A stretch of DNA of 59,127 nt from an uncultured Candidatus Bathyarchaeia archaeon (GTDB taxonomy: Archaea > Thermoproteota > CALKCG01 > B24 > JAWCPE01): positions 1-59,127 of the forward strand of contig CAYNFI010000007.1 of the NCBI GenBank assembly GCA_964396445.1, read 5' to 3'. The first letter of the stretch is position 1. Each line of letters opens with the position of its first letter. Shown here piece by piece: positions 8,663 to 59,127 of this stretch. The translations under genes were made by a program, and so were the position numbers. The notes beneath the pieces were generated by a model. The model was not told where the DNA came from, did not search any database, and worked only from the letters and a program-made list of their open reading frames with translations.

Positions 8663-9991
8663 TTAAACGATTGTTTTGGCTACGCTGCTGTAGTATTCTC
8701 TGTCAAATCTAGCCAGTTCCTCGGGCATCTTCGACCAGGCTTGCGCTGTACGCCAGATACATACATAGTTTTCTAGAGCTACTCTGATGTCATCACTTGT
8801 AGGTACAACGTTGTGGTATCCAGGTAATCCCATGGACCCATAGTAGCACCACAGCCCTACGGCGTTACTGACCTGATATCCGCTTACGGTATAGCGTAGG
8901 AACTCCTCTCTCTGAAGCCCGTCACGTCCAGCCTCTCCACTTAGCACGTAATCAGCATAGGCATAGACGAAGGGAAGTGTGACGCGGCAGGTTCCGAAGG
9001 GCTCAGTACTCGAATGGAGATACAGTAGGCGGTCTCCAAGAATGGCTCTGGCGCGTCGAATCATGTAGTAACCAGGACGAAAATCATCGCGGTGTCCACA
9101 CCAGCCGTCGAAGTAAAGTCCATCAACACCATACTCGCTTAGAACACGCTGCATCTCGGCGAAGACATCTGGGGCATTAGAGTAGTACGGGCTGAGGTAG
9201 ACTACAAACTTCATACCAAGCCTATGGGCTTCATCGCGCACCCTGGTGAACTCATTCATGTCAGCTGGCACTGGATGGTCTGTCTCCCAAGGCTTAGGAT
9301 GTTTATACCTCGCACCGGGAGGGTTCTCAGCCCATTCAGGCGCATCAGCTGCCCAAGCTTCGTGAACCGTAAATATCTTACAGTATCTGGCGTCGCTGTG
9401 AATGATCTCGTTTGAGGGATAAGGATCTTGAGCGCTTCCTTCATGGGCAACGGATTCACAGAACTTCCCCGGATCACGCTCACGCGGGGGACATACTGAA
9501 ACCCAAAGCTCATCCCATCGTGCTAAATGAGTTAGAATAGACCAGCTCTCCGTGTCTATACCTTCCACCTCGGTAGGCCTCGGGGGAATACCGTAGAAGC
9601 CGCAGCCTCCCATAGGGTCTAGAAGAAGCCTGTTACCCCTCACTTCTTGCGCATAACGGGGTTGAAAATACCCGGTGAACGAAAGTCGGAGGTGTTGTTG
9701 AGGTGTAAAAACAAACGTGGAATCGCCTTGCACGGTTAAGCGTAGACCATTGCCTTGGAATATGCAGCGAAAAGGTGATTGATGGATGAATTTCCAAGGA
9801 GAAAGGTGAGGGGGAAGCTGACAACTTATCAACCTTCTCTTCACACCTATTCGTTGTTCGACGTCAAAAAAACCATTGCTTTCGAGGATTACTTTTGTCC
9901 CAGTAGTGAGAACTGTGAACCCTGTAACATCGGTTTGAACTTGTTTAATGCCCATATCCATGAGAACTCGGTCATCTAGTTCTAAATCCAT
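8663..9991 (-). CDS. Hypothetical protein with putative glycoside-hydrolase-like TIM barrel
   Basis: 442 aa; C-terminal HRLGMKFVVYLSP...GVDGLYFDG pattern seen in GH-like barrels; family not determinable by eye. Confidence 0.55.
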   Translation of the reverse strand: MDLELDDRVLMDMGIKQVQTDVTGFTVLTTGTKVILESNGFFDVEQRIGVKRRLISCQLPPHLSPWKFIHQSPFRCIFQGNGLRLTVQGDSTFVFTPQQHLRLSFTGYFQPRYAQEVRGNRLLLDPMGGCGFYGIPPRPTEVEGIDTESWSILTHLARWDELWVSVCPPRERDPGKFCESVAHEGSAQDPYPSNEIIHSDARYCKIFTVHEAWAADAPEWAENPPGARYKHPKPWETDHPVPADMNEFTRVRDEAHRLGMKFVVYLSPYYSNAPDVFAEMQRVLSEYGVDGLYFDGWCGHRDDFRPGYYMIRRARAILGDRLLYLHSSTEPFGTCRVTLPFVYAYADYVLSGEAGRDGLQREEFLRYTVSGYQVSNAVGLWCYYGSMGLPGYHNVVPTSDDIRVALENYVCIWRTAQAWSKMPEELARFDREYYSSVAKTIV

Positions 9992-23793: not shown

Positions 23794-26445
23794 TTGATGG
23801 TGGGAATGCCTGCTAGAACTCTTGAAGACTTCATATACGCGAAGAAGGAGCTTAAAGACGTTATGAAAGAAGCTCCCACAGTTGAAACTACTAAACACGA
23901 GGAAACTAAGGTGGAGAACACTGTAACTAAACCTGAGGTCCAGACCCCAATGAAGCTGGGGAAGTCATACGTGGTTTCAGCCTCCTACGAGGGGGGGAAG
24001 CGTAAGGCATATCTTAAGCTTTACAACGAGGATGAAGAGAAGATTTACCTATGGTATGATAATACAGGACATCAGCCGTATTGTCTCTCAGACTTAACTC
24101 CAGAGGAGCTGAGTACACTTGAGGCCCTTATGAAGCATCCAAGCTTCGACCACTTCGAAACCGTGGTGAAGTTTGACCCGCTGGAGGATAAGGAGAAGAC
24201 TCTAACAAAGGTTGTAGCTAAAGACCCTTTAGCGATAGGTGGCAGGCCTTCAGGATGTATAAGGGATATCCTACCAAAAGCTTGGGAAGCCGATATAAAG
24301 TACTACGAGAACTTCATCTTCGACAGGGATATTAAGGTGGGAATGCCCTACGACATCGAGGATGGAAGCCTCGTTGAGGCGAAATACACACCACCAGCCG
24401 AGGTTTTAAAGTCCATTACCAAGCTCTTCGAGAGGGAGCCTAGAGAGCTGCAGGAGCATATTCAGCGATGGGTTAACCTCCTCGAATGCCCTACACCAAG
24501 TTTCAGGAGGGTAGCTCTCGACATCGAGGTAGCTTCCGATGTTGCTACAAGGGTTCCAAACCCAGAGGAAGCCAACGACCCTGTCATCGCCGTTGCTTTA
24601 GTCGGCTCAGATGGGTGGAGGAGGATATTGATACTGAGGAGGAGGGGAGTTGAAGAAGGTACGGCAACGGTGGATGAAGAGCTTGTATACCACGACCGAG
24701 AAACAGACCTACTGTTGAGTGTTTTCAAAACCCTCCTCGATTATCCCTTCGTTATCACTTTCAACGGAGACGACTTCGACTTACGCTACCTTTTCCACAG
24801 AGCTGAGAATCTAGGTTTTTCGAGGGAACAGATACCTATAGAGCTGGGAAGGGATTTTGCACTTGTCAAGAATGGTGTACACATAGACCTTTACAAATTC
24901 TTCTTTAATCGTTCCATACAGGTCTATGCCTTCAGCCAAAAATACAGGGAAACAACTCTTACGGATATAGGTGAATCCCTCCTAGGCATAGGGAAGGTCG
25001 AGCTTGGGAAACCGGTGACGGAGCTCTCTTACACAAACCTCGCTGATTACTGCCTACGGGATGCTGATTTAACGTATAGGCTGACATCATTGGAAAACGA
25101 CCTTGTCATGAAGCTTATTCTCGTCTTAGCTAGGATCAGCCGTATGCCTATGGAGGACCTTTCAAGACAGGGAGTTTCAGGGTGGATCAGAAACCTCCTC
25201 CGCTACGAGCATAGACGTAGAAACTGGCTTATCCCACGTTCAGAGGATGTGCTTTCCGCGAAGGGTATAGCCACAACTAGGGCCATCATAGAGGGGAAGA
25301 AGTACCGGGGAGCGGAGGTAATTGAGCCCAAAGCAGGGGTATACTTCAACATCTCCGTCCTAGACTTCCAATCCATGTACCCATCCATCATCAAGCAGTA
25401 CAACCTCAGCTTTGAAACCGTGCGCTGCCCTCACCCTGAATGTATGGAGAATAAGGTTCCAGATACCACCCACTGGGTATGTAAGAAGCGGAGGGGAATT
25501 TCAAGTCTTGTGATAGGTTCCTTAAAAGACCTAAGGGTGAAATGGTATAAGCCTAAATCAAGGGATAAGACGCTTCCTAAACCTGTAACCGACTGGTATA
25601 ACACGATATCCAACAGCCTTAAGGTTTTACTCAACGCCGCGTATGGTGTTTTCGGTTCAGAAGCCTTCTTCCTCTACTGCCCACCCGTCGCTGAAGCTAC
25701 GGCTTCAATTGGTAGATATGCTATCATGGAGACCGTGAAAAAAGCTCAAGCTCTAGGGGTTGACGTTGTCTACGGAGACACAGACTCAATATTCCTCGAA
25801 GCCCCGACTTCTCAGCAGATAAGAGACTTAATGGAATGGTCTGAAGTCAGCCTCGGAATGGAGCTCGACATCGATAAAGTATACCGATACGCGGTTTTCA
25901 GCTTGAGGAAAAAGAACTACATGGGTGTTTTCCCCGATGGAAGCGTTGACATAAAGGGTTTAACTGGGAAGAAGAGGAACACCCCAGAATTCTTGAAGAA
26001 AGCTTTCTTCGATATGATCGCCATCCTCAGCGAGGTTCAATCCATCGAGGGCTTCGAGGAAGCTAAAAAGAAAATCAATGACCTTGTTAAAACCTGCTAT
26101 TCAAAGCTTAAGAAACGCGAGTATTCCCTCCAAGACCTCGCCTTCAACATCATGATCAGCCGTTCCCCAGAAGGTTATGTAAAGACCACCCCACAACACG
26201 TTAAAGCAGCGCAGCAACTGGCAAAGACAGGAAGGCGGGTAACGGCGGGGGACATCATATCCTTCGTAAAGGTTTCAGGCACCCCCGGCGTAAAGCCCAT
26301 CCAACTCGCAAGCCTCGACGAAGTTGATGTTGATAAATACGTGGAGTACGTGCAAAACACATTTCAACAAGTCCTCGACGCCTTGGACATAGACATACAC
26401 AGCATCTTCGGGACGACACGCCTAGACCTCTTCATACCAAGCTGA
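23794..26445 (+). CDS. polB1: Family B DNA polymerase, PolB1 group
   Basis: Exo motifs ALDIEV and FNGDDFD; pol motifs DFQSMYPS, KVLLNAAYG, YGDTDS; KGLTGKKRNTP typical of TACK PolB1; no intein. Confidence 0.92.
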   Translation: MMVGMPARTLEDFIYAKKELKDVMKEAPTVETTKHEETKVENTVTKPEVQTPMKLGKSYVVSASYEGGKRKAYLKLYNEDEEKIYLWYDNTGHQPYCLSDLTPEELSTLEALMKHPSFDHFETVVKFDPLEDKEKTLTKVVAKDPLAIGGRPSGCIRDILPKAWEADIKYYENFIFDRDIKVGMPYDIEDGSLVEAKYTPPAEVLKSITKLFEREPRELQEHIQRWVNLLECPTPSFRRVALDIEVASDVATRVPNPEEANDPVIAVALVGSDGWRRILILRRRGVEEGTATVDEELVYHDRETDLLLSVFKTLLDYPFVITFNGDDFDLRYLFHRAENLGFSREQIPIELGRDFALVKNGVHIDLYKFFFNRSIQVYAFSQKYRETTLTDIGESLLGIGKVELGKPVTELSYTNLADYCLRDADLTYRLTSLENDLVMKLILVLARISRMPMEDLSRQGVSGWIRNLLRYEHRRRNWLIPRSEDVLSAKGIATTRAIIEGKKYRGAEVIEPKAGVYFNISVLDFQSMYPSIIKQYNLSFETVRCPHPECMENKVPDTTHWVCKKRRGISSLVIGSLKDLRVKWYKPKSRDKTLPKPVTDWYNTISNSLKVLLNAAYGVFGSEAFFLYCPPVAEATASIGRYAIMETVKKAQALGVDVVYGDTDSIFLEAPTSQQIRDLMEWSEVSLGMELDIDKVYRYAVFSLRKKNYMGVFPDGSVDIKGLTGKKRNTPEFLKKAFFDMIAILSEVQSIEGFEEAKKKINDLVKTCYSKLKKREYSLQDLAFNIMISRSPEGYVKTTPQHVKAAQQLAKTGRRVTAGDIISFVKVSGTPGVKPIQLASLDEVDVDKYVEYVQNTFQQVLDALDIDIHSIFGTTRLDLFIPS

Positions 26446-39389: not shown

Positions 39390-39465
39390 TGGAGCCTCGG
39401 GAGGGATTTGAACCCTCGACCTACAGCTTACGAGACTGTTGCTCTGCCAGCTGAGCTACCGAGGC
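39390..39465 (-). tRNA. tRNA-Thr(CGT), intronless, CCA encoded
   Basis: GCCTCGG/CCGAGGC acceptor, anticodon loop CT-CGT-AA, GGTTCAAATCC T-arm, 76 nt. Confidence 0.95.
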
Positions 39466-39548
39466 GCTTACAGGGTCTCATTGATTCATGTATGATAAAA
39501 AGATTGCTTGGGAAATGTTTAAAGGAGGCTTTTAAAATTTAGGTTTTT

Positions 39549-39671
39549 GGGTCGCTGACCATAGGGTGTGGGTCCTACCCGCTCTCGTTCCGAACGCGGA
39601 AGTCAAACCATACCACGTTTCCTGCCTCTGTAGTGCGGAAGCCTACGTGAGGTGGGAAATGTTAGCGACCC
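39549..39671 (+). rRNA. rrf: 5S rRNA (stand-alone, divergent from tRNA-Thr)
   Basis: Helix I GGGTCGCTGAC/GTTAGCGACCC, CCATAG, TCCGAAC..GGAAGTCAA signatures; 123 nt; TATA-like TTTAAA upstream. Confidence 0.92.
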
Positions 39672-46644: not shown

Positions 46645-47571
46645 ATGTTCGCCGTTTTTCTCTCCCACAAGGGACTCAAGCTGTCCGCGGTTTTCCCTTG
46701 GAAAACCGGCATCGTAAGCTTCATGGCTTACCCCTCTATGATGAAGGGGGAGGGGGATGTTTGCGGTTACCTCCGAACGCTCGCTGAAGACGCCTTCTTT
46801 GAAGGCGTAGAGGTATGTAACCTCACGGATGCCCAGTGGAACTCTGTTAAACCCCTGCTCGCTGAGAAGACGGTTGGTAGAGGTCTGCAGCCAGACCTAC
46901 TCATGGGTAAACTTGACATCAACGCTCTTGAAGAAGAGGCTCGTCAGAAGGCTGTAAACTACGTGATTCGGGAGGTCGATATCGCGGCTAAACGGGGTAT
47001 ACAAACAGTTGCCCTATGCTCAGGCCCAGACCCAGGGGTCGACAAGAGGGGTCAAGCCAAGGAACTCCTCATCGATTCCCTAAACCTGATCTGTGACAAA
47101 GCTGCTAGGCTAAATGTCACCATCCTCATCGAACCCTTCGATAGGGATTATGATAAAAAGCTGCTTATCGGACCTCTAGATGAGGCTGTGGACATCGTGG
47201 ACAACGTTAGACGGAGATATGAAAACATAGGAGTTTTATGGGACTTAAGCCACGCCCCTATGCTTAACGAAGCCCCGGAGGTTTTGGAGAAGGCTAGGGA
47301 CTTCTTGACACATGTACACATCGGATGTGCCAAGCGGGTTGGTGATAAGTACGTGGACAGTCACCCAACCTTCTATACGGAAGGCGCCGTGAACACAGTG
47401 AACGATGTTAAAACACTCCTGAAAACACTGTATAACATCGGTTACAGGAGGATGGTGAGCTTCGAGGTGAGACCTGAGGAGCGTCAGACGAGTGAGGCGG
47501 CCATAAACTGCGCTAAGGGTGTGCTCGTTTCAGCCTATCAAAAAATGGCTTCCGAGGTTCTTTCAAAGTAG
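46645..47571 (+). CDS. Sugar phosphate isomerase/epimerase (xylose-isomerase-like TIM barrel)
   Basis: LIEPFD, DLSHA, HVHIG, DSHP, SFEV metal-binding motifs. Confidence 0.8.
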   Translation: MFAVFLSHKGLKLSAVFPWKTGIVSFMAYPSMMKGEGDVCGYLRTLAEDAFFEGVEVCNLTDAQWNSVKPLLAEKTVGRGLQPDLLMGKLDINALEEEARQKAVNYVIREVDIAAKRGIQTVALCSGPDPGVDKRGQAKELLIDSLNLICDKAARLNVTILIEPFDRDYDKKLLIGPLDEAVDIVDNVRRRYENIGVLWDLSHAPMLNEAPEVLEKARDFLTHVHIGCAKRVGDKYVDSHPTFYTEGAVNTVNDVKTLLKTLYNIGYRRMVSFEVRPEERQTSEAAINCAKGVLVSAYQKMASEVLSK

Positions 47572-51409: not shown

Positions 51410-52483
51410 CTACTTCAGAGTTGAAAAACTGAGTTTCCTTAAAGCGTTTGCTACAGCCTTCCCACCGTTTCTTTCACATAGCTCCTGTGCTACGGCTAAA
51501 TCTACTCGTTTAGGCTCTTCACCCCATAACCTTTGAAAGTTCTCTGCGTAGACCCTCTTCAAAACGCCTTCTGGTAGGTTAAGGCCAAGGTAAGGCAGCT
51601 CATACCGGGTTAAGAGACTGTCCGCGTATGTGGGTGTGTGGAATTCCTCCTCTGACTCTAAGAGGTTTCGTACAAGCCATACACGGGCGATTGATTCTTG
51701 AACCTCTTGCCACGCCATTATATCTGTTCCGAAAAGTGTACGGTTCTGATACTTGATGAAGAACTCCCTCCACGCGTCTCTTCTCCGTGAAATGTTATAC
51801 ATAAGCTCGACTCCGAGAGCTAGGTCGAGATGTGCGTTACTATATCGGTCTAGGAAATCTGCGGCCCTCTTAAGGTTGGATGACATGAAGTTGAAGTGGC
51901 ATAAAACGATCTTCAAATAAGGATGGGCGTCGAGGACGTTCTCAATCTCCCTGTAAAGCTCCTCTTTCGAAGGGTAATCTCCGAGGTAGTAAACCCAGCC
52001 ACGCTCCTTCGCCCAGTCTGGAGCCTGAGCTTCATCCCAGAACTCTTCAGGGTCGGCAACATGGCATAGAACTGGGTAGCCATAATCTTCGCATACATCC
52101 CAAAGGCCCTTATAGTAGTCCGAGTCTAGGGACGTGTGCTTATCCCGAGGGACAGGCTTTGAACCCATTTCACCGATTCCGTCAAACCCAGCCTCAATAA
52201 GGGAGCCAATATAATCAACCCAGTTTATCCTGAGCAGCTTTTCAGCCTCGCCAGACCATGGCACAAATCCACCGGCGTAGAATAGGCTTGGGTGCTTAAC
52301 CTTAAGATAGAGCCCTGTTAAGCCGCCGGAAATGCACATCTTATTAAGTCGACACTCGGATAAAATCTCAGGTATCGACTCGCTTATTTTCTTCAGATCA
52401 TCCTCGGTTACAAGGTTTCCACTTGGGTTAACGTGAACATGGCAATCGATGACATGCATGTCCGCGAAATCGGAAATCCTCAC
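51410..52483 (-). CDS. Amidohydrolase_2 family metal-dependent hydrolase
   Basis: IDCHVH, LCHVAD, LCHF, LFGTD. Confidence 0.8.
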   Translation of the reverse strand: MRISDFADMHVIDCHVHVNPSGNLVTEDDLKKISESIPEILSECRLNKMCISGGLTGLYLKVKHPSLFYAGGFVPWSGEAEKLLRINWVDYIGSLIEAGFDGIGEMGSKPVPRDKHTSLDSDYYKGLWDVCEDYGYPVLCHVADPEEFWDEAQAPDWAKERGWVYYLGDYPSKEELYREIENVLDAHPYLKIVLCHFNFMSSNLKRAADFLDRYSNAHLDLALGVELMYNISRRRDAWREFFIKYQNRTLFGTDIMAWQEVQESIARVWLVRNLLESEEEFHTPTYADSLLTRYELPYLGLNLPEGVLKRVYAENFQRLWGEEPKRVDLAVAQELCERNGGKAVANALRKLSFSTLK

Positions 52484-52859
52484 TTAGCTATGCCACCTGT
52501 TTTACTATTTACATCCTCGAACCGCATTAGATAAGTCTTCTCCAATCCGATCTTTTTGATCATCGAAAACGATTGACCACGTTATTCCTTCCACTCTCAA
52601 AGCGATCAATCCATGCCTATAGAGGCATGAGGAAAACTCGTTGCAAATTTAAGGTTTTCTACATGATACAACCCTAGTCAGAGGGAGCGCTTGACATTCT
52701 GCCTATGGGCTACAACCTATCCCAGCATCGTGCCTGAAGGCTAGCTCAATAACTTTGGGAGGAAACACGTTGACTTCTGCTCCTATGAATGCCTGCGGAT
52801 AGGTTACACATCTTACCGACAATAAGACGTTTTAAGTTGAGCCCAACGCTGCAGTTCTT

Positions 52860-53039
52860 TCATCCCCAGTTACGTCCTGCCTTGAAGATTTCGCTCCAGC
52901 ATTGCCTGCAGATAGGGCGTGTCAGTCCCCCGACGTAGATCAGAAGCTGGATGTCATAGTTTGAGCAGCCTGGCTTCCAAGGGTTCGCGCATGTCTCCCT
53001 GTAGACATCATGTCCAGCGTTTCTATTCTTCCTAACCAC
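52860..53039 (-). CDS. Unannotated 59-aa Cys4 (Zn-finger-like) protein
   Basis: MVRKNRNAGHDVYRETCANPWKPGCSNYDIQLLIYVGGLTRPICRQCWSEIFKAGRNWG; GTG start with GGAGGTGA SD directly after the polB2 stop; below the ORF-track cutoff. Confidence 0.7.
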   Translation of the reverse strand: MVRKNRNAGHDVYRETCANPWKPGCSNYDIQLLIYVGGLTRPICRQCWSEIFKAGRNWG

Positions 53040-53056
53040 CCAGCCGTATCACCTCC

Positions 53057-55306
53057 TTACAACTCTTTCCCGAGGGACATGAGTTCGCGGAGAATCTCCT
53101 TCTCCCTTTCATCTCTGATTTCCTTAAGGAAGCCTCGTGCGGGGGACTTGTACCCAAGCTGCTCCCTTGTGAAGCCGTTCCAGCCTAGGATCGTCTCAGC
53201 AACGTCGAGGAGCATCTCTTGATACTTCACATGGTCGTAGTAGTGATGGTTGCTGTTTATGAGTTGAGCTGGCATAACCCTCCTTAAGGGGTTTGGATGC
53301 TCGGCGTTGACGAGGAGGAAGTCTATTGGATGACTGTCCCGGAGCATATTGAGTTCATTGAATTTCTTCCCCTTCTGAACCATCTGGATGGCAGCGGAGA
53401 CATGGGGAAACATAGATCGGTAACCGTCTATAGGCTTCCTGAGCATCTTCCGGACCACAAGCTTCTCAGCCGGGACCTCCCCGTCAGCTATCTTCCCTAG
53501 ACACTCAACTACGTATTCGCGTGCCCTGAGATACTGCAATTCCCGAACCTGCTCCGCATCCTCGGCTTTGAACAGTATCTCCATAAGCCTTGTCTGGAAA
53601 TCCTTCAGGAACTCGGGGTAGTCGCGTCTCCTCAACTCAATGCCTCTGTAATAGAGTTCACTGTTCACCAGCTTCCCGAAGTAGTGGCGGACTGATTCAA
53701 TGTTCGGGTCCGCCTCCTGCGCCAAGAGGACGAGGAACTTGTAGTGATGGTCTAAGGCTATGGGAAGCCCGACTTCCCCCTGTATCTTCGCCGCTAAGCC
53801 CTCGTATTCTGACCGTGTGGCGTTGAGTTTCTTGACGAAGATGGAGTCGCAGTCCGCGTACACGACCTTAAAGCCTTCGCGGAGAGCGATGTTCAGCGTC
53901 TTCACCAAGATGTTTCTTGAAACGTTGTTGATCTCGCTATACGCGTACACGCTTCCAAACCTATTTACGTCGCATCCGCTGAAGCCGTAGATGCATACGA
54001 GTATCTGCTTCAAGGCGGATTGTCTTTGCTCGCACCAAAGCCATTCCCGGCTATCCCTAGGATACTTTCTACGTAAGCGTTTGAAGTGGAGGCGTCGGTC
54101 TAAGAACCTCTTCGTGAACTCTCCTAGAAAGCCGGGTCGTGACTTGTCGATGCCTTTTGGGGTAACGGTTTCATAGGAGATGTTGTAGGCGATCAGGATG
54201 TTAGGGAACATGGACTCATAGTCAAGTTCAGCCACGTTTTCGTGGAGGCCCATCGCAGGGGAGAGGATGAGCCCGCCGCGGTCGCGGAAGATAAGGTCCT
54301 TAGCCGTCACCCTGAATCGGGGGTAGTTACGCAGCTTAGGGATTAGGATATTTTTTCGGAGGGCTTCGTAGCACTGCCTCGAATCTATGGCTCGACCGGC
54401 ACGCCATCGAGACGCCAAACCTGGAGGGGCGATTGTGAAACGGCTTTCCTCAACGATGCCCGCGACGCCGTCGTGGAGGAAATCGCCGAGCTGAAGCGTT
54501 ACCCTGCCCTGTAAGGCGCGGTGATAGGGTTCCCTCATCCCTTGATGGGCCGCGGGCTCCCTCCCAAGCTGAACGTTAAGGCATAGCTTCTGAACCCTCT
54601 TCATCAGGTATGGCAGCGTTACCTCATCGCAGTCTGGGGCGACGAGGAAGTCTGGGTTGCTTTTTTGAACGATGTCCGCGAGGGACTGGATGATCCGCGG
54701 TTCATCCCCGGTTAATGAGCTGGTTGCGTCAAGCGCTTCGTTGAAAACCGTGATCTCCGCTATGGGGTCTTCTTCAGGGTCCGGTGTCAACCTCTCGCTT
54801 TGGGCTTCTATCTGGAAAATCAGTGAGGTGAAGGGGGGCGGCTGAAACTCCACGCCGTCGTCGAGAACAGTTACCTCCTTTATTTTCCCGTCATGGTCGT
54901 ATTCCACCTCCACCTTGTTGGTGGGAGCGAAGGCTTTTGAGAACAGGTATCTCTGTACGTGGAGGATGTCCGTGTTAAACCATTCCTCAACGCCGTTAAC
55001 CCTTTCCAAGTCTCTTAAAACCCGTTTAAACCCACTCGCCTTATCGACGGAGACGTGGACTACCCCGCTTTTCTCCCTTGAGACAACCGAGGGGTACCTC
55101 CACTCAACCCTTGCGTCCACGATGTTTGGATGGCTCATTATCAGCGTAGCGGCTTCCTCAGCGTTAACATCGTCTTTGAACTTAACGTAGAAATCCGGCT
55201 GGTATAGGTCCCGTAGTTTAACGGCTTTTCCTTCAACGGTTTTAATCCATAGAATAGCTTCGTCGTCCTCTATGTACGTGTCCAGTATCCAGCCTACGGT
55301 CTTCAT
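53057..55306 (-). CDS. polB2: Family B DNA polymerase, PolB2 group (exonuclease-degenerate)
   Basis: Motif A LDYESMFPNI, motif B KQILVCIYGF, motif C YADCDS; ExoI FQIE (Asp lost), ExoII degenerate; RGIELRRRD. Confidence 0.82.
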   Translation of the reverse strand: MKTVGWILDTYIEDDEAILWIKTVEGKAVKLRDLYQPDFYVKFKDDVNAEEAATLIMSHPNIVDARVEWRYPSVVSREKSGVVHVSVDKASGFKRVLRDLERVNGVEEWFNTDILHVQRYLFSKAFAPTNKVEVEYDHDGKIKEVTVLDDGVEFQPPPFTSLIFQIEAQSERLTPDPEEDPIAEITVFNEALDATSSLTGDEPRIIQSLADIVQKSNPDFLVAPDCDEVTLPYLMKRVQKLCLNVQLGREPAAHQGMREPYHRALQGRVTLQLGDFLHDGVAGIVEESRFTIAPPGLASRWRAGRAIDSRQCYEALRKNILIPKLRNYPRFRVTAKDLIFRDRGGLILSPAMGLHENVAELDYESMFPNILIAYNISYETVTPKGIDKSRPGFLGEFTKRFLDRRLHFKRLRRKYPRDSREWLWCEQRQSALKQILVCIYGFSGCDVNRFGSVYAYSEINNVSRNILVKTLNIALREGFKVVYADCDSIFVKKLNATRSEYEGLAAKIQGEVGLPIALDHHYKFLVLLAQEADPNIESVRHYFGKLVNSELYYRGIELRRRDYPEFLKDFQTRLMEILFKAEDAEQVRELQYLRAREYVVECLGKIADGEVPAEKLVVRKMLRKPIDGYRSMFPHVSAAIQMVQKGKKFNELNMLRDSHPIDFLLVNAEHPNPLRRVMPAQLINSNHHYYDHVKYQEMLLDVAETILGWNGFTREQLGYKSPARGFLKEIRDEREKEILRELMSLGKEL

Positions 55307-55326
55307 AACCCCCGCCGGGGATCCTT

Positions 55327-56463
55327 TCAGGGCTGGACCTGCAGCCGCGCTGGTACGGCAGGCTTCTTAAGCTCCTCTCTAAGCTTCTCAACGTCGGTCC
55401 TTAGGAGCATGAAGCCCTTACCCAGGTCCTCGATAGCCCTACGGTTGTCCACGGTGGCTGTTAGAAGCATGACGTCGAGGACCGTCGGTATCTTTGCCCG
55501 GCTCATAGCTCCCATCTCGCCGCTCCAAACCCTCACCAGGGCGTCGAGGGCTTCCCTACGCTCGTGGTCCCTGAGGGCTTCACGGTAATCCCTCTTCAGG
55601 TTACCCAATTCTTCTCGGAACCTTGTTCGAAACGGTATGGTCACTCTACCCATATCGAAGCCTCCTAAGCTGAATGTGAAGCTGATCCTTCTCGGTGGAT
55701 TACTCGGGTGCTTAACTAGGAGTGCTTGGATGGAGGGGGAGCTGGGTTCAGGTTTCCTCAGATGCACTAGGATGTTTGCCGCGTGGTGTAGGTACTTTCC
55801 CCCCTCCGGCTTAGGAACCCGCCCGCCACCGCACGGTCTAGGCCTACAGCTGGCGATGAGGGCTACGTGGTTTCGGCTACATGCCTGGCATAGCTTTGAG
55901 ACGATGTTCTGGAGACGCTTTATCCTCTCCAGTCTTTCAAACACCGCTCCCTTTGAGTCCTGGCGGTCGAAGAGCTTAGCGACGTTGTGGACTACAAGGG
56001 TCTTCACATCTTTGTCCCGCTTAATAGCCTCTACGACGTTTTCCACAACCTGCTCCTCATGCTCATCGCTGAAGGCGAAGAAAACCTTGATCCTGTCAAG
56101 GGCTGTGAAAGGGTCGAGTTCAGAGGCTTTTAGGAGGGTTGTAAGCCGGTGAACATCGAGAACGGTCTTCTCCTCCCTGTAGTTCCCACAGTTTAGGTAG
56201 AGGGCTTCGCCTTCGAAGCCCTGCTTATCGATTGGGCGTAGGGTGTTGACGAGGACTTGATGTAGTATTAGGTCTACCCCGCTTTCTCGGTCTCCGTAGA
56301 AGAGGTAGAAGGCTCCTGGTTGAATCCCCCCGCCCAGCAGGGAATCTAGGTCGGCGTTGCCCGTTGTCAGCCTATGTTCATCCCGCTTCTCTTGGAGAAC
56401 GGTGAAGGCGGTGACGAAGTCTTTGTCAGACTGCATCGATGTGTTTCCCCTGTGAGGGTTCAT
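55327..56463 (-). CDS. Inactive RadA/RecA-like protein fused to a small helical PolB2-associated domain
   Basis: RLTTGNADLDSLLGGG RadA start, Walker A degenerate (GDRESGVD, no Lys), GGKYLHHAANI; C-terminal 108 aa begin MGRVTIPFR behind an internal AGGAGG SD. Confidence 0.75.
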   Translation of the reverse strand: MNPHRGNTSMQSDKDFVTAFTVLQEKRDEHRLTTGNADLDSLLGGGIQPGAFYLFYGDRESGVDLILHQVLVNTLRPIDKQGFEGEALYLNCGNYREEKTVLDVHRLTTLLKASELDPFTALDRIKVFFAFSDEHEEQVVENVVEAIKRDKDVKTLVVHNVAKLFDRQDSKGAVFERLERIKRLQNIVSKLCQACSRNHVALIASCRPRPCGGGRVPKPEGGKYLHHAANILVHLRKPEPSSPSIQALLVKHPSNPPRRISFTFSLGGFDMGRVTIPFRTRFREELGNLKRDYREALRDHERREALDALVRVWSGEMGAMSRAKIPTVLDVMLLTATVDNRRAIEDLGKGFMLLRTDVEKLREELKKPAVPARLQVQP

Positions 56464-56591
56464 TCAGCTTTTACGGTAACGGGCTCCCCAGCCTCCTCGG
56501 TTTTAACGGTTTTTAGGTCTAGCTGAGACCGTTGACACCCCGTTGTCACAGGCTCTCCACGCACCTTTTCTCTCCGATTTTCCCTCAGCAC
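56460..56591 (-). CDS. Possible 43-aa linker ORF between radA and the RadA paralog
   Basis: GTG 1 nt after the radA stop; TGA overlaps the next ATG (ATGA); exactly fills the gap. Confidence 0.3.
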   Translation of the reverse strand: MLRENRREKVRGEPVTTGCQRSQLDLKTVKTEEAGEPVTVKAE

Positions 56592-56592
56592 C

Positions 56593-57591
56593 CTAGTTTG
56601 ATTCCTCTAAACCCCTCTGATCCCTCTCCTGAACGTCTTCTATGCCCTCACCTGTTATGATGAAGGCTGCGGGTTCCTCGTTGGATGGAAGGGATGGGCT
56701 GTCGATGACCGTGGCATGTCTCAGGTTCGCCTTACACTTCCTCAGGTAGATGCGATGGGTTGAAGCGTGGGCTAACACGTTTCCACCCGCTGGGCGGTTG
56801 GGGTCCCCGAAGAAGGCTTGGGGGTTCGCTATAACCTGGTTCGTTACCACGACGGCTAGGTTGTAAACCTCAGCTATTCTAAGGAGCCTATGCACGTGCA
56901 TGTTCAGCTTCTGCTGCCTCTCAGCTAAGGATTCCCTTCCAAGGTACTCGCCTCGGAAGTGGCTTACTATGGAGTCGACGACCACCAGCTTAACCCCCTC
57001 CTTCTCGATGACCTTAGGGCAGCTTTCTACGATGAGCATTTGATGGTCGCTGTTGTAGGCACGGCTGTAGATGACGTTCTTCAAAGCACCTTCAGGGTTA
57101 AGCTCCAAGCCCTGAGCCATGGCGTAGACACGCTGAGGGGCGAAGGTTCCCTCGGTGTCGATGAAGAGGGCTTTACCCTCTAAGCCGCCTCCGGCCACTG
57201 GTAGCTGGCATGTGACGCTGAGCTCCATGCATATCTGGCTTTTCCCAGAGCCGAACTCCCCAGCCAGTTCAGTGATAGCCTGCGTTTCAACGCCTCCTCC
57301 AAGCATGGCGTCCAAGGCTTGACTTCCCGTCGTCAGCTTCATAGCCAGCCTCCTCCTCTCATAGAGCTCGTAGGAGGAGATGAAGTCCACCGAGACCAGG
57401 TCTCTGGCGGCGTCAACGACTTTTTCAGCCACATCGTAGCCTAAACCCGCCCTGCTGATCAATTCCCTCACCGGCGTAGCCACAACGCTTTCAACGGTGT
57501 GGTATCCCGCCTCGCGGAGCCTACTCACCGTCGCTGACCCTACACTGCTTACCTCCTTGAGCTTCTCAACGGGCAGCAATTGCGCGGTCAT
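56593..57591 (-). CDS. radA: DNA repair and recombination protein RadA
   Basis: N-terminal HhH, GEFGSGKSQ Walker A, FIDTEGTF, VVVDS, FRGEYLGR, GGNVLAHAST; ATG 57591 with GGTGGTGA SD. Confidence 0.93.
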   Translation of the reverse strand: MTAQLLPVEKLKEVSSVGSATVSRLREAGYHTVESVVATPVRELISRAGLGYDVAEKVVDAARDLVSVDFISSYELYERRRLAMKLTTGSQALDAMLGGGVETQAITELAGEFGSGKSQICMELSVTCQLPVAGGGLEGKALFIDTEGTFAPQRVYAMAQGLELNPEGALKNVIYSRAYNSDHQMLIVESCPKVIEKEGVKLVVVDSIVSHFRGEYLGRESLAERQQKLNMHVHRLLRIAEVYNLAVVVTNQVIANPQAFFGDPNRPAGGNVLAHASTHRIYLRKCKANLRHATVIDSPSLPSNEEPAAFIITGEGIEDVQERDQRGLEESN

Positions 57592-57630
57592 CTTTTGGTC
57601 ACCACCGATCGGTGAACTCGGTGAAGGCTC

Positions 57631-57669
57631 GATATATAGAGCCACGTACCACTTGGGGGGGAGGGGGGT
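57631..57669 (-). promoter_or_regulatory. Putative radA promoter (TATA-like TATATAT) with adjacent G7-A-G6 tract
   Basis: TATATA at 57633-57638, ~45 bp upstream of the radA ATG; GGGGGGGAGGGGGG at 57655-57668. Confidence 0.4.
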
Positions 57670-57728
57670 CTCCTCTACTTCGTGGAAAATTTTAGAGAAT
57701 TAAGTAGGGAGCAAGAAGGTGTTGACTG

Positions 57729-58034
57729 CTATGTATACTCTATCTTTCTGAAGAACTCCTCTAGGTGTTTCACCAAGGCGTTGTCCAGGTTTATCGCATA
57801 CTTCTTCGGTCGAAGAGGAAGCCCCTTTACCCAACCGATTCTAACGAGTTCTGTGACATGCCTTCTGATGTCTACGGCTTTAAGCGGGGTCTTCCGCTCT
57901 AACTCGTACATAGTAAACGCGTGGTGGGGGTTCCTTAATAGTAGGCGTAGAATCTTCAACTTCGCGGGGCTGCCTACGCCTAACTCCATGACTTCAGCGA
58001 TATCTGTTCTAGGCTCTAGCTTCATGTAGACCAC
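57729..58034 (-). CDS. Winged-helix-turn-helix protein (ArsR-like)
   Basis: SPAKLKILRLLL...FTMYELERKT...IRRHVTELVRIGWV; overlaps the cdc6 3' end. Confidence 0.75.
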   Translation of the reverse strand: MVYMKLEPRTDIAEVMELGVGSPAKLKILRLLLRNPHHAFTMYELERKTPLKAVDIRRHVTELVRIGWVKGLPLRPKKYAINLDNALVKHLEEFFRKIEYT

Positions 58035-59127
58035 TCTTCACACGTTCATGTATGTTGTTGAGGAACCTATCCAGGTCCTCCGTTGTAACCCCGCTTATCC
58101 CTATCTGAGAGAGGCTTTTAATGTCGATTATGCCCCTGTCAGAAAGGTCTTGAACGTATTCCTCAACTTCCTCCACTGGTTTAAACCCGTATTCCTCGTA
58201 TACAACGGCGACCATGTCCCTGATCTCCCGTAGTGGAACGTACGGGGAGCCTCTACGCCTTAAAGCCCTCACCGCAGCGAGCAGTATGAGCTTCTCAGTA
58301 TCAGGTAGGCTTAGAATATCCTCTGTCGTTATCACCGGATACGTCTCACTGATGACTCTCCTCACATGTTCAGGCCGTATCTCCCCGCTTCCCTGGTTCT
58401 CCGCTAGGGTACCGGAGTAGAGAAGTAGGTCCAGGGCATACCTCATATCCCCGTTGACGGGCGGTCGCGCGGTCACGTCGGCTATAAACTCGAGGACGTC
58501 GATGGAGCACGCGCCCGGGTGTAAGGCTTCCTCAACCCTCTTCTCAAGTATCTCAGCGACCTGTGTGGAGGTGTACGCTGGGAAGGGTACATAGCTCCTT
58601 CCTAAAGTGCTTAACTCCGCCACGTCGAGGAGGTCGTGGAATTTCTTATCCCTAGCGAGGAAAGTGGCTCCGACAACGCCGCATGGCCTGTCAAGTGTAA
58701 GCTCGTTCAACCGTGTAAGGTCGTAGATTATACCCTCGTCTTTAAAATGCCTTACGTAGTAGTCAACCTCGTCGATGGTTAGGAGGATGCGTTTCCTCCT
58801 AGTCTGAAGGTATTCGACGAGGTTTCTCAGCATCTCCTCAGCGCTTAGGCTTGTTGATACAAGGTTTGGGTCAACCTTTTCAAGGAGGCTTCTGTAGAGG
58901 ATAACCCTTCTTCCCCCCTCAAGTCTCAGGTTGACGTAGAGATGCTTCACGTCCACACCGTGGCTCCTAGCTTCCCTCTCAAAGCTGTCGCCGAAGAATC
59001 TAAGGGTGCAGGTTTTCCCCGTACCAGCTGGACCGATGATCTGGGTTACGCGGAGGAAGGATTCACCTTTTTTCTCAATGACGTTTCCGTAGATACTCCA
59101 GAGCATCTCAACCTGCTTAGACCTATG
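58009..59127 (-). CDS. cdc6: Orc1/Cdc6 AAA+ initiator (5'-truncated by the window edge)
   Basis: GPAGTGKT Walker A, IDEVD Walker B, GDMRYALDLL sensor 2, C-terminal wH domain; frame stays open to the edge (HRSKQVEM). Confidence 0.92.
   Translation of the reverse strand, partial: HRSKQVEMLWSIYGNVIEKKGESFLRVTQIIGPAGTGKTCTLRFFGDSFEREARSHGVDVKHLYVNLRLEGGRRVILYRSLLEKVDPNLVSTSLSAEEMLRNLVEYLQTRRKRILLTIDEVDYYVRHFKDEGIIYDLTRLNELTLDRPCGVVGATFLARDKKFHDLLDVAELSTLGRSYVPFPAYTSTQVAEILEKRVEEALHPGACSIDVLEFIADVTARPPVNGDMRYALDLLLYSGTLAENQGSGEIRPEHVRRVISETYPVITTEDILSLPDTEKLILLAAVRALRRRGSPYVPLREIRDMVAVVYEEYGFKPVEEVEEYVQDLSDRGIIDIKSLSQIGISGVTTEDLDRFLNNIHERVKSGLHEARA

Follow-up and report, generated by a model that had tools for sequence, protein, structure and literature searches.

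A probable PolB2 translesion-synthesis operon merged with a radA recombinase module in an uncultured Bathyarchaeia archaeon

We analysed a 59,127-nt stretch of the chromosome of an uncultured Candidatus Bathyarchaeia archaeon (contig CAYNFI010000007.1; the whole stretch is hereafter referred to as the window) and, in particular, a cassette of six co-directional minus-strand open reading frames (ORFs) at 52860–59127, with intergenic gaps of −26 to 129 nt. This locus is probably an archaeal PolB2 operon for translesion synthesis (a 'mutasome' operon) of the early-branching DxD type; it lies on the chromosome, and it would have merged with a recombinase module and be served by one promoter. A sequence-only reading of the same DNA had described six or seven minus-strand genes here, encoding an Orc1/Cdc6 protein, a winged helix-turn-helix (wHTH) protein, RadA, a dead RadA paralog, a PolB and a Cys4 protein, and had tentatively taken them for a mutasome-type unit in which an inactive RadA paralog, regulators and a recombinase accompany the polymerase. 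All six genes are present where that reading placed them, profile searches and motifs agree with its descriptions of their products, and the conserved gene order, together with the protein identities reported below, supports the PolB2 mutasome-type interpretation. Its gene list was, however, incomplete: a seventh component, PPB2, a 108-residue domain at the C-terminal end of the ORF for the RadA paralog, had been overlooked, as had a conserved promoter at 57632–57690. For full-length genes and upstream context, we used a sister contig (L081) that is 99.3 % identical to the window.

The polymerase gene polB2 (53057–55306, minus strand) encodes a 749-aa family B enzyme that keeps its polymerase motifs (motif A, LDYESMFPN; motif C, YADCDS, of the DxD form) and has a destroyed exonuclease site. 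ExoI reads FQIE, with Gln in place of Asp, the position of the ExoII motif NxxxFD reads DCDEVT, and no ExoIII YxxxD motif is recognisable at the homologous position of this protein. The earlier description of a proofreading-less PolB with its motif A and C aspartates is thus upheld, and the motifs suggest that the enzyme is probably an active, non-proofreading polymerase. The separate PolB1 that had been noted elsewhere in the window was likewise recovered at 23794–26445 (NF004417, 1137 bits), with its ExoI–III motifs all intact.

To place the enzyme among the archaeal PolB clades, a check that the sequence-only reading had proposed, we compared it with profile models. The best NCBIfam models were the PolB2-type NF004416 (232 bits) and NF004418 (188 bits), which align end to end; the PolB3-type NF004421 scored 109 bits over the polymerase domain alone, and models of the PolB1 and PolB3 types cover just the polymerase half. 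A genuine haloarchaeal PolB2 fragment from the available portion of the PMC11791011 supplement, used as a positive control, scored 812 bits on NF004418. Both the profiles and the control favour PolB2, not PolB3. An assignment to PolB3 on the strength of the best PDB match (5mdn) was considered and rejected, as the PDB is without any PolB2 structure and the profile comparison favours PolB2. The PolB2 signature motifs RD(K/R)GG (RDRGG in the window) and ALKxILVxC(Y/F)G are present, and the protein aligns with the Nitrososphaeraceae PolB2 entry MPZ08283.1 ('DTD') in the same available portion of that supplement. On the basis of its profiles, motifs and operon partners, we assign the polymerase to the PolB2 group, as a member of the early-branching, DxD-retaining type.

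Further details of the polymerase were recorded in passing. Within motif A, the steric-gate Tyr is replaced by Phe (residues 365–368; SMFPN), and motif B (residues 433–441; ALKQILVCIYG) is without the Asn-Ser of KxxxNSxYG, a change common to haloarchaeal PolB2. A C-terminal KP(R/K)x(F/W)(L/I)xEL motif is conserved in the clade of the window PolB2 and lacks the canonical Gln and position-4 hydrophobic residue of a PCNA-interacting (PIP) motif; among PolB2 and iRadA proteins, just a fraction of members have such a clamp-binding motif. In the sister contig, PolB2 stops 15 codons sooner (GAG to TAG; window 53057–53101), indicating that the C-terminal tail, comprising the last 15 residues, is dispensable or variable.

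Ending 20 nt upstream of polB2 is the ORF of the RadA paralog, a fusion of two domains. The iRadA domain (55654–56463, minus strand) is an ATPase-dead RadA core that lacks the helix-hairpin-helix (HhH) domain: the Rad51 profile matches residues 31–241 (E value 1.9e-18), there is no HHH_5 match, and the P-loop site reads GDRESG-VD instead of GxxxxGK[ST], so that the Lys/Ser are gone. The absence of the Walker A Lys from the RadA paralog is, therefore, as first described. In the AF2 model of the whole ORF (pLDDT 83), a RadA core of high pLDDT (residues 19–262) is followed by a low-confidence linker (267–275) and three helices (278–366). The top Foldseek matches of the core are RAD51/RadA and RAD51 paralogs (TM ~0.7). 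An FxxA-type polymerisation motif is kept in iRadA (FVTA, in DFVTAF) at a position homologous to that of the RadA/RAD51 motif, and [FY]xx[AG] was found in 37 of 54 iRadA homologs.

The PPB2 domain (55327–55653, minus strand; 108 aa) is fused in frame to iRadA and begins with the N-terminal arm MGRVTIPFR, which includes the second Arg expected near position 9 of PPB2. It matches stand-alone ORFs of 92–107 aa that lie between iRadA and PolB at other loci (71–76 bits), and the fusion junction (M/L)GR(I/V)T.PFR is kept among homologs. An internal AGGAGG (55666–55661) precedes the PPB2 ATG (55653) by an N7 spacer, suggesting that free PPB2 can be made from this internal start in addition to the fusion protein. 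The small helical partner expected of an archaeal polB2 operon had been sought in the wHTH gene; this candidate was ruled out, as the wHTH has an ArsR/MarR-type fold and is coupled to orc1, and the partner is instead the PPB2 domain fused to iRadA. A PolB2–iRadA–PPB2(×3) complex is predicted here by likeness to published multimer models of other species. As a side observation, precomputed annotations place PF26485.1 beside Rad51 on many iRadA~PPB2 homologs (e.g. P0122), not on the window protein's own cluster; it may be a model of PPB2.

The recombinase gene radA occupies an ORF spanning 56593–57645, and its true start is most likely the ATG at 57591 (56593–57591, minus strand; 332 aa), since the gene call in the sister contig agrees and the TATA box then lies upstream of it. 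Its product is a canonical recombinase: it exceeds the equivalog cut-offs (NF003301, 421.8 bits, cut-off 259; TIGR02236, 399 bits, cut-off 361), has an HHH_5 match denoting the HhH domain and an intact Walker A (GEFGSGKS), and is matched over its full length by Sulfolobus solfataricus RadA (PDB 2bke, 307 bits), as expected from the original account of an intact RadA. It is the first gene of what we term the effector array, i.e. radA, iRadA~PPB2, polB2 and the Cys4 gene.

A comparative scan using one genome per GTDB species yielded 80 loci from Bathyarchaeia, Nitrososphaeria, Geothermarchaeales, Brockarchaeota, relatives of Thermoproteales and Asgard lineages (gene calls in these loci were made with a simple ORF caller and taxonomy labels are as in the database records). 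iRadA/PPB2 is found directly upstream of PolB in 51/62 loci with enough upstream DNA, as an iRadA~PPB2 fusion in 33 and as separate genes in 18. In roughly half of 48 related loci, drawn from Bathyarchaeia, Nitrososphaeria, Brockarchaeota and Geothermarchaeales, canonical radA is at the head of the array; a full-length, Walker-A-positive RadA stands immediately upstream of iRadA in 21–23 of the 48, often with gaps of 18–30 nt. Further upstream, among 40 loci flanked by 3 kb or more, Orc1 is encoded in 16 and the wHTH in 13. DUF72 adjoins orc1 or radA in about ten loci, and in the sister contig, two DUF72 genes lie beyond the window edge, further upstream of orc1. The flanks of the cassette are housekeeping genes that differ between loci. 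The comparison of neighbourhoods called for at the outset thus shows an arrangement that is kept across classes and is not a junction accident.

In neighbour-joining trees built from one set of loci, RadA and PolB2 agree in their sister pairs and in their two major clades (Spearman 0.68). Locus L003 encodes its RadA 9 kb off on the other strand, and yet this RadA pairs with the adjacent RadA of L006, as do the PolB2s of these two loci. The congruence of the trees indicates that the cassette RadA is the ordinary RadA ortholog and that the block has mostly been inherited vertically.

The promoter module in front of radA (57632–57690, minus strand) consists of ATTTTC (57690–57685), the C-tract CCCCCCTCCCCCCC (57668–57655), AAGT, GGTACGTGG (57650–57642), CTC and TATATAT (57638–57632), and the radA ATG starts 41 nt downstream of the TATA box. 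The consensus is a C6TC7 C-tract followed by GGTACGTGG and then TATA. The exact C-tract occurs just once in the 59-kb window, ahead of the array; another C-tract, at 46745, falls within a gene on the plus strand and was attributed to chance. In related loci, the element precedes the first gene of the array, be it radA or, where radA is absent, iRadA, and at distant loci, it takes the form of CT-rich tracts with TGCGT and TTAA(A/G), often with A[CT]TTTC[AG] just 5′ of the tract. Defined as a run of at least nine pyrimidines with at least seven C, a C-tract is present in 29/55 array promoters (53 %) vs 12/312 control upstream regions of the same loci (4 %; Fisher p 1e-18). A[CT]TTTC[AG] is found in 22 % of array promoters vs 5 % of controls (p 1e-4); for ANTTTC, the corresponding values are 27 % and 19 %, which is not significant. 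The dominant conserved element is the C-tract plus GT(A/G)CGT, which differs from ANTTTC.

With an nhmmer model trained on the genome loci, matches lay almost exclusively upstream of the first array gene (1.1 Mb searched). As an independent test, the same model was run on 80 RadA-centred metagenome loci (576 kb), where it returned eight sites: five directly upstream of a cys4 gene preceding radA, two directly upstream of orc1 (L116 and L160) and one divergent from orc1 (L116). All eight have identical spacing to a TATAAATA box. With a stricter model, no strong off-target match was found in 1.7 Mb. This specificity and fixed setting indicate a specific promoter type common to orc1 and the (cys4-)radA(-iRadA~PPB2-polB2) unit. 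The idea that the locus is one regulated unit, as originally proposed, gains comparative support to this extent, from the motif before radA or cys4 and, in relatives, before orc1. The position before orc1 suggests autoregulation, by analogy with that reported for orc1-2.

The last gene of the array (52860–53039, minus strand) encodes a 59-aa zinc-ribbon protein with four Cys (Cys4; consensus C.NPW..C...PIC..CW...EW). The gene is separated from the polB2 stop by 17 nt and is equipped with a GGAGG ribosome-binding site of its own. Profile searches returned no family match for the protein. An exhaustive HMMER search retrieved about 130 representative relatives, none of which had been found by a word-index search; 98 are stand-alone proteins and 32 carry the domain at the C-terminus of coiled-coil proteins of roughly 110–310 aa. 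Several of the latter (P0231, P0233, P0237, P0242, P0251 and P0344) are ~200–310 aa in length and one is CdvA-like (PF18822, 3e-13), which hints at a link to cell-division proteins. The gene is intact in the sister contig, with one residue different. It follows PolB2 solely in the window and in loci L018 and L037, and it lies directly upstream of radA in 11/67 RadA-centred loci, typically in the order orc1-wHTH-[motif]-cys4-radA. Its occurrence in two permuted positions of the unit identifies it as a member of the predicted transcription unit.

Upstream of the promoter lie the two candidate regulators. The orc1/cdc6 paralog (58009–59127, minus strand) matches Pfam Cdc6_lid (3.6e-21), AAA_22 and Cdc6_C and has intact Walker A (GPAGTGKT) and Walker B (DEVD) motifs. 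The window edge removes 27 N-terminal residues; the full protein in the sister contig is 399 aa. It scores 167.5 bits on TIGR02928, under the cut-off of 181. Against PDB sequences, the best scores are to Orc1-1-type structures (1fnn, 115 bits; 2qby_A, 112 bits; 2v1u, 106 bits) vs 45 bits for ORC2/Orc1-2 (1w5s), suggesting that the protein is closer to initiator-type Orc1-1 than to Orc1-2. The analogy with Sulfolobales Orc1-2 drawn in the sequence-only reading is accordingly weakened, in that the PDB scores do not place this Orc1 with the Orc1-2 cluster. Thaumarchaeota are inferred to have lost Orc1-2 (Raymann et al.). Given the Orc1-1-like character of the protein and this inferred loss, the Sulfolobus Orc1-2 model is a functional analogy at best.

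The second candidate regulator is a small winged-helix protein of 98–101 aa (57729–58034, minus strand) whose start overlaps the orc1 stop. Its sequence match is weak (MarR_2, E value 0.0066); a single-sequence AF2 model of modest confidence (pLDDT 68.6) led Foldseek to ArsR/MarR-type regulators (1ub9, TM 0.69). In all 13 genome loci where the wHTH family occurs, it immediately follows orc1; the overlaps are mostly 8–17 nt (range 8–53, with one 4-nt gap). Judging from this arrangement, the orc1-wHTH pair would be translationally coupled, and we regard the two proteins as candidate regulators of the array.

Much of this architecture conforms to what has been published. The archaeal PolB2 operon comprises PolB2, iRadA (ATPase-dead, with no N-terminal domain) and PPB2/arCOG07300 (Makarova 2014, PMC4104785; Timinskas 2025, PMC11791011). 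PPB2 is a three-helix protein of about 90 aa whose N-terminal MGRT arm inserts between PolB2 and iRadA, and multimer models show a PolB2–iRadA–PPB2(×3) assembly with a PolB2 loop in the acceptor pocket of iRadA (PMC11791011). Fusions of iRadA and PPB2 with an internal Shine-Dalgarno sequence, PolB2 members of the TACK archaea that keep DxD and branch beside PolB3, and an enrichment of orc1/cdc6, MarR_2, HTH_20, DUF72 and SRAP genes near PolB2 operons have all been described (PMC11791011). The window locus shares with this family three co-oriented components, a dead exonuclease, RD(K/R)GG, the MGRxT arm, an iRadA that lacks both the HhH domain and the P-loop, the iRadA-PPB2 fusion with its internal Shine-Dalgarno sequence, the Orc1/cdc6, MarR-like and DUF72 neighbours and DxD. 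The novelty claimed for it in the sequence-only reading was consequently overstated, since the orc1/cdc6 neighbours, the DxD-retaining PolB2 and most other parts of the architecture were already in print. The locus differs in having radA first, a zinc-ribbon member, a C-tract/GGTACGTGG promoter common with orc1 and an FxxA motif in iRadA. Absent from the searchable literature are radA as the regular first gene, the zinc-ribbon member, the C-tract/GGTACGTGG promoter, including its occurrence before orc1, and the iRadA FxxA motif; none of them figures in the top-20 neighbour table of PMC11791011.

The best-studied PolB2, Dpo2 of Sulfolobus islandicus, is damage-induced, has no proofreading, extends mismatched and lesion-paired termini, is responsible for targeted mutagenesis and depends on Orc1-2; in the Sulfolobus model, Orc1-2 binds ANTTTC and activates dpo2. 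The window locus resembles this Sulfolobales regulon, with its DNA damage-responsive element (DDRE, 5′-ANTTTC-3′), in linking an Orc1/Cdc6 protein to a damage-tolerance PolB2 and in having an element upstream of TATA. It differs in its Orc1-1-like Orc1, in its C-tract plus GT(A/G)CGT element, in the dedicated wHTH encoded alongside and in the inclusion of radA within the unit; the main text of the paper on the Sulfolobus regulon nowhere mentions 'radA'.

Looser parallels can be drawn with bacterial and eukaryotic systems. The Escherichia coli Pol V mutasome (UmuD′2C-RecA-ATP, under the LexA/RecA SOS response) follows the same logic, in which a recombinase and a translesion polymerase are co-regulated, and the present locus would likewise place a recombinase, a recombinase-derived subunit, a small oligomeric armed subunit and an error-prone polymerase under common control. 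The likeness is one of logic, not of homology: the polymerase here is of the B family, not the Y family, there is no LexA or UmuD and the recombinase-like subunit is a dedicated dead paralog. In the damage-inducible ImuA-ImuB-DnaE2 cassette, a degenerate RecA-like protein is also encoded with an error-prone polymerase; this again is an analogy only, as that cassette has a C-family polymerase and the Y-family-like ImuB and has no PPB2, Orc1 or RadA gene. None of LexA, UmuD, ImuB or DnaE2 was detected among the six gene products scanned, and the polymerase is of family B. RAD51-paralog complexes (BCDX2/CX3; PDB 9svx, 9q29) cap RAD51 filaments, and the iRadA core superposes on them (TM about 0.7), with the differences that iRadA is ATPase-dead and tied to a polymerase; from its FxxA motif, iRadA may cap or bind the end of a recombinase filament. 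Finally, Pol zeta (Rev3-Rev7x2-Pol31-Pol32) is, like PolB2, a multisubunit B-family translesion extender with an inactive exonuclease, a parallel drawn in PMC11791011; its accessory subunits are unrelated and include no recombinase paralog.

Taking these observations together, we propose that one C-tract/GGTACGTGG/TATA promoter would drive radA, iRadA~PPB2 (with free PPB2), polB2 and the zinc-ribbon gene. Upon damage to the DNA, C-tract promoters, in some lineages including that of orc1 itself, would be acted on by the Orc1 paralog, the wHTH or both, and RadA and the PolB2–iRadA–PPB2(×3) complex would then be produced together. By analogy with S. islandicus Dpo2, PolB2 without proofreading would extend primer ends opposite lesions or mismatches. 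iRadA would bind PolB2 and, given its own FxxA motif, may attach the complex to a RadA filament end.

An extended version of this scheme, which we regard as tentative and rather doubtful at present, would make the locus part of an SOS-like DNA-damage regulon of Bathyarchaeia, Nitrososphaeria and their relatives, with an organisation unlike that of the Sulfolobus regulon. Orc1 and the wHTH would autoregulate through the C-string/GGTACGTGG element and switch on the zinc-ribbon protein, RadA and the mutasome, joined in some lineages by an RPA-like protein; iRadA, with its acceptor pocket filled by PolB2, would cap the RadA filament via FxxA and so bring the polymerase to the 3′ end. If true, a filament-capping iRadA would be an archaeal counterpart of both RecA*-activated Pol V and the RAD51-paralog caps.

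Several observations weigh against our interpretation of the locus as a merged, co-regulated operon. The polymerase scores under the curated cut-offs of both PolB2 models (NF004416 and NF004418), for which reason its membership rests on profiles, motifs and partners. Orc1 looks like the initiator Orc1-1, not like Orc1-2, the Sulfolobus regulator of the DNA damage response, and the Sulfolobus ANTTTC element is weakly enriched in the array promoters. At many motif-bearing loci (L010, L011 and L052–L058), there is no orc1 or wHTH within 7–10 kb. The gap between radA and iRadA in the window is 129–156 nt, leaving room for an internal promoter, so that co-transcription is not assured. Two related loci (L103 and L116) each carry two full radA genes. 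In addition, S. islandicus PolB2 and active RadA do not pair in silico (PMC11791011); this published pairing test did not involve iRadA's own FxxA motif.

An alternative account is that a housekeeping radA and orc1 merely sit beside an ordinary PolB2 operon, with no shared regulation or joint function. The RadA does score above its equivalog cut-off and is orthologous to the RadA encoded apart from the array in L003, the Orc1 is initiator-like, the flanking genes are ordinary and variable between loci and, seen from the RadA side, a PolB is nearby in about 7/62 loci. Passive juxtaposition nevertheless seems unlikely to us, as the order is kept across several classes with radA–iRadA gaps of 18–30 nt, the promoter motif shifts with the leading gene and is found before orc1 too in L116 and L160, and the zinc-ribbon gene accompanies the unit in two different positions. 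The same Orc1-1-like similarity could also point to replication, with Orc1 binding an origin recognition box (ORB)-like site, made up of a short dyad and a G-string, and RadA, iRadA, PPB2 and PolB2 starting or restarting synthesis there or at broken forks, rather than bypassing lesions. The other strand of the C-tract is indeed a G-string beside the partly palindromic GGTACGTGG, and the C-tract/GGTACGTGG element presumably bears comparison with ORB elements, which we treat as a lead only. RPA-like and helicase genes are also part of some arrays. A connection with origin regulation has been proposed, and RadA is required in origin-less Haloferax (Makarova 2014, PMC4104785). The element, however, lies at a fixed distance upstream of TATA and the start codon, as a promoter would, it is usually single-copy, with neither an AT-rich unwinding region nor an inverted ORB pair, and Sulfolobus genetics and biochemistry place PolB2 in translesion extension; we therefore judge a replication module to be highly unlikely.

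The base composition of the cassette bears on a further alternative, that of a recently acquired island or mobile element with its own Orc1, recombinase and polymerase. The shift in GC content noticed in the sequence-only reading is real: in 1-kb windows, the cassette has a GC content of 0.52–0.55 vs about 0.48, and the GC content at third codon positions (GC3) is 0.65–0.68 in radA, iRadA~PPB2 and polB2 and 0.60 in orc1, vs 0.50–0.55 in the neighbours and a mean of 0.52 (sd 0.045) over the remainder of the window. The foreign origin at which this had seemed to hint does not follow, as the excess is family-wide: GC3 exceeds that of the flanking genes in 32/36 related loci (median +0.089; Wilcoxon p 2e-7), across host GC3 values from 0.22 to 0.82. 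Being common to the family, the shift is not a sign of recent import. Reportedly, Dpo2 drives GC-to-AT changes and is found in low-GC crenarchaea. An island would also be consistent with the flanking genes that vary among genomes, with the tyrosine recombinase that adjoins DUF72-orc1 in L034 and L047 and with the frequent transfer of PolB2 among archaea inferred in PMC11791011. Against this, the integrase or att site that might have been expected was not found: no integrase, tRNA or att site is present in the cassette flank or in the 4.1 kb beyond the window edge, no repeats occur at the cassette borders, and the nearest tRNA is at 39.4 kb. A scan of 2.9 million viral contigs gave one weak match, and RadA and PolB2 give congruent trees whose clades are coherent. 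The family-wide GC3, the lack of an integrase or tRNA and the near-empty viral scan lead us to reject a foreign island as the cause of the GC shift, and recent acquisition of the locus is, in our view, barely plausible.

We return, then, to the operon interpretation and to its significance. In the sole archaeon tested, PolB2 is the enzyme of damage-induced mutagenesis, and outside the Sulfolobales, the PolB2 holoenzyme and its control are known from computation alone. The variant described here unites a predicted-active PolB2 and its subunits with the presumed main recombinase, a zinc-ribbon protein, a candidate regulator pair and a promoter element of ~40 bp, in widespread lineages that are uncultured or hard to grow and include relatives of the ammonia oxidisers. 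It thereby bears on the old question of whether archaea beyond the Sulfolobales couple recombination and mutagenic synthesis in an SOS-like manner. Should the regulatory link fail, the locus would stay a well-annotated member of a published operon family; should the regulon and filament-docking ideas prove true, its interest would rise sharply.

A number of variations on the array were seen in related loci. An RPA-like protein of 530–575 aa recurs in it (L013, 6784–8505; L061, 766–2361; L103, 5157–6884; L085, 4430–6142; L116, 1–1647, minus strand) and is absent from the window. Its N-terminal 220 residues are RPA/RFA-like, with an OB fold and a zinc ribbon (NF005554, 1e-21), and its C-terminal 350 residues gave no matches. 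In three loci, the gene is flanked by radA and iRadA, in a fourth it comes straight after radA, and in L116 it is preceded by the copy of the promoter motif that is divergent from orc1. L003 keeps a remnant of this gene, an 81-aa ORF (8664–8909) located after the motif and before iRadA; an ORF in the equivalent position in L006 is probably spurious. The duplicate radA genes of L103 (1199–2149 and 4175–5167) are both full-length and Walker-A-positive, are 71 % identical and both stand behind C-tract promoters. Those of L116 (4092–5048 and 7581–8090) are also full-length and Walker-A-positive, and the array there goes on with a 108-aa ORF and a DEAD/ResIII helicase.

The RadAs closest to that of the window (55–60 % identity) are found in L083 (1577–6887), L084, L090 and L091, where they are followed by a distant family B polymerase of 740–782 aa; in L083 and L084, a more divergent iRadA-like gene comes after radA. 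These loci may represent another RadA-linked PolB variant. In two Bathyarchaeia loci (L034, 1–1143; L047, 2–583), a tyrosine recombinase with a C-terminal double zinc ribbon lies directly upstream of DUF72-orc1, and members of the same recombinase family were also seen in L023 and one further locus. An iRadA-PPB2-PolB2 array is carried by L057 (DATLAV010000200.1), which is labelled 'Patescibacteria group bacterium'; its motifs cluster with those of GNN-type Bathyarchaeia loci, suggesting that the label is probably a binning error.

Within the window, Rfam and tRNA scans of the cassette gave no matches, and scans for sigma-70 promoters and intrinsic terminators were uninformative, the host being an archaeon. 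A 376-nt gap (52484–52859) separates the Cys4 stop from an Amidohydro_2 gene (51410–52483); it holds no ORF, RNA family or repeat, and there is no oligo-T tract directly after the Cys4 stop. Two RNA genes are the only ones found in the window: a minus-strand tRNA-Thr(CGT) gene and a plus-strand 5S rRNA gene, ~85 nt apart at 39390–39670.

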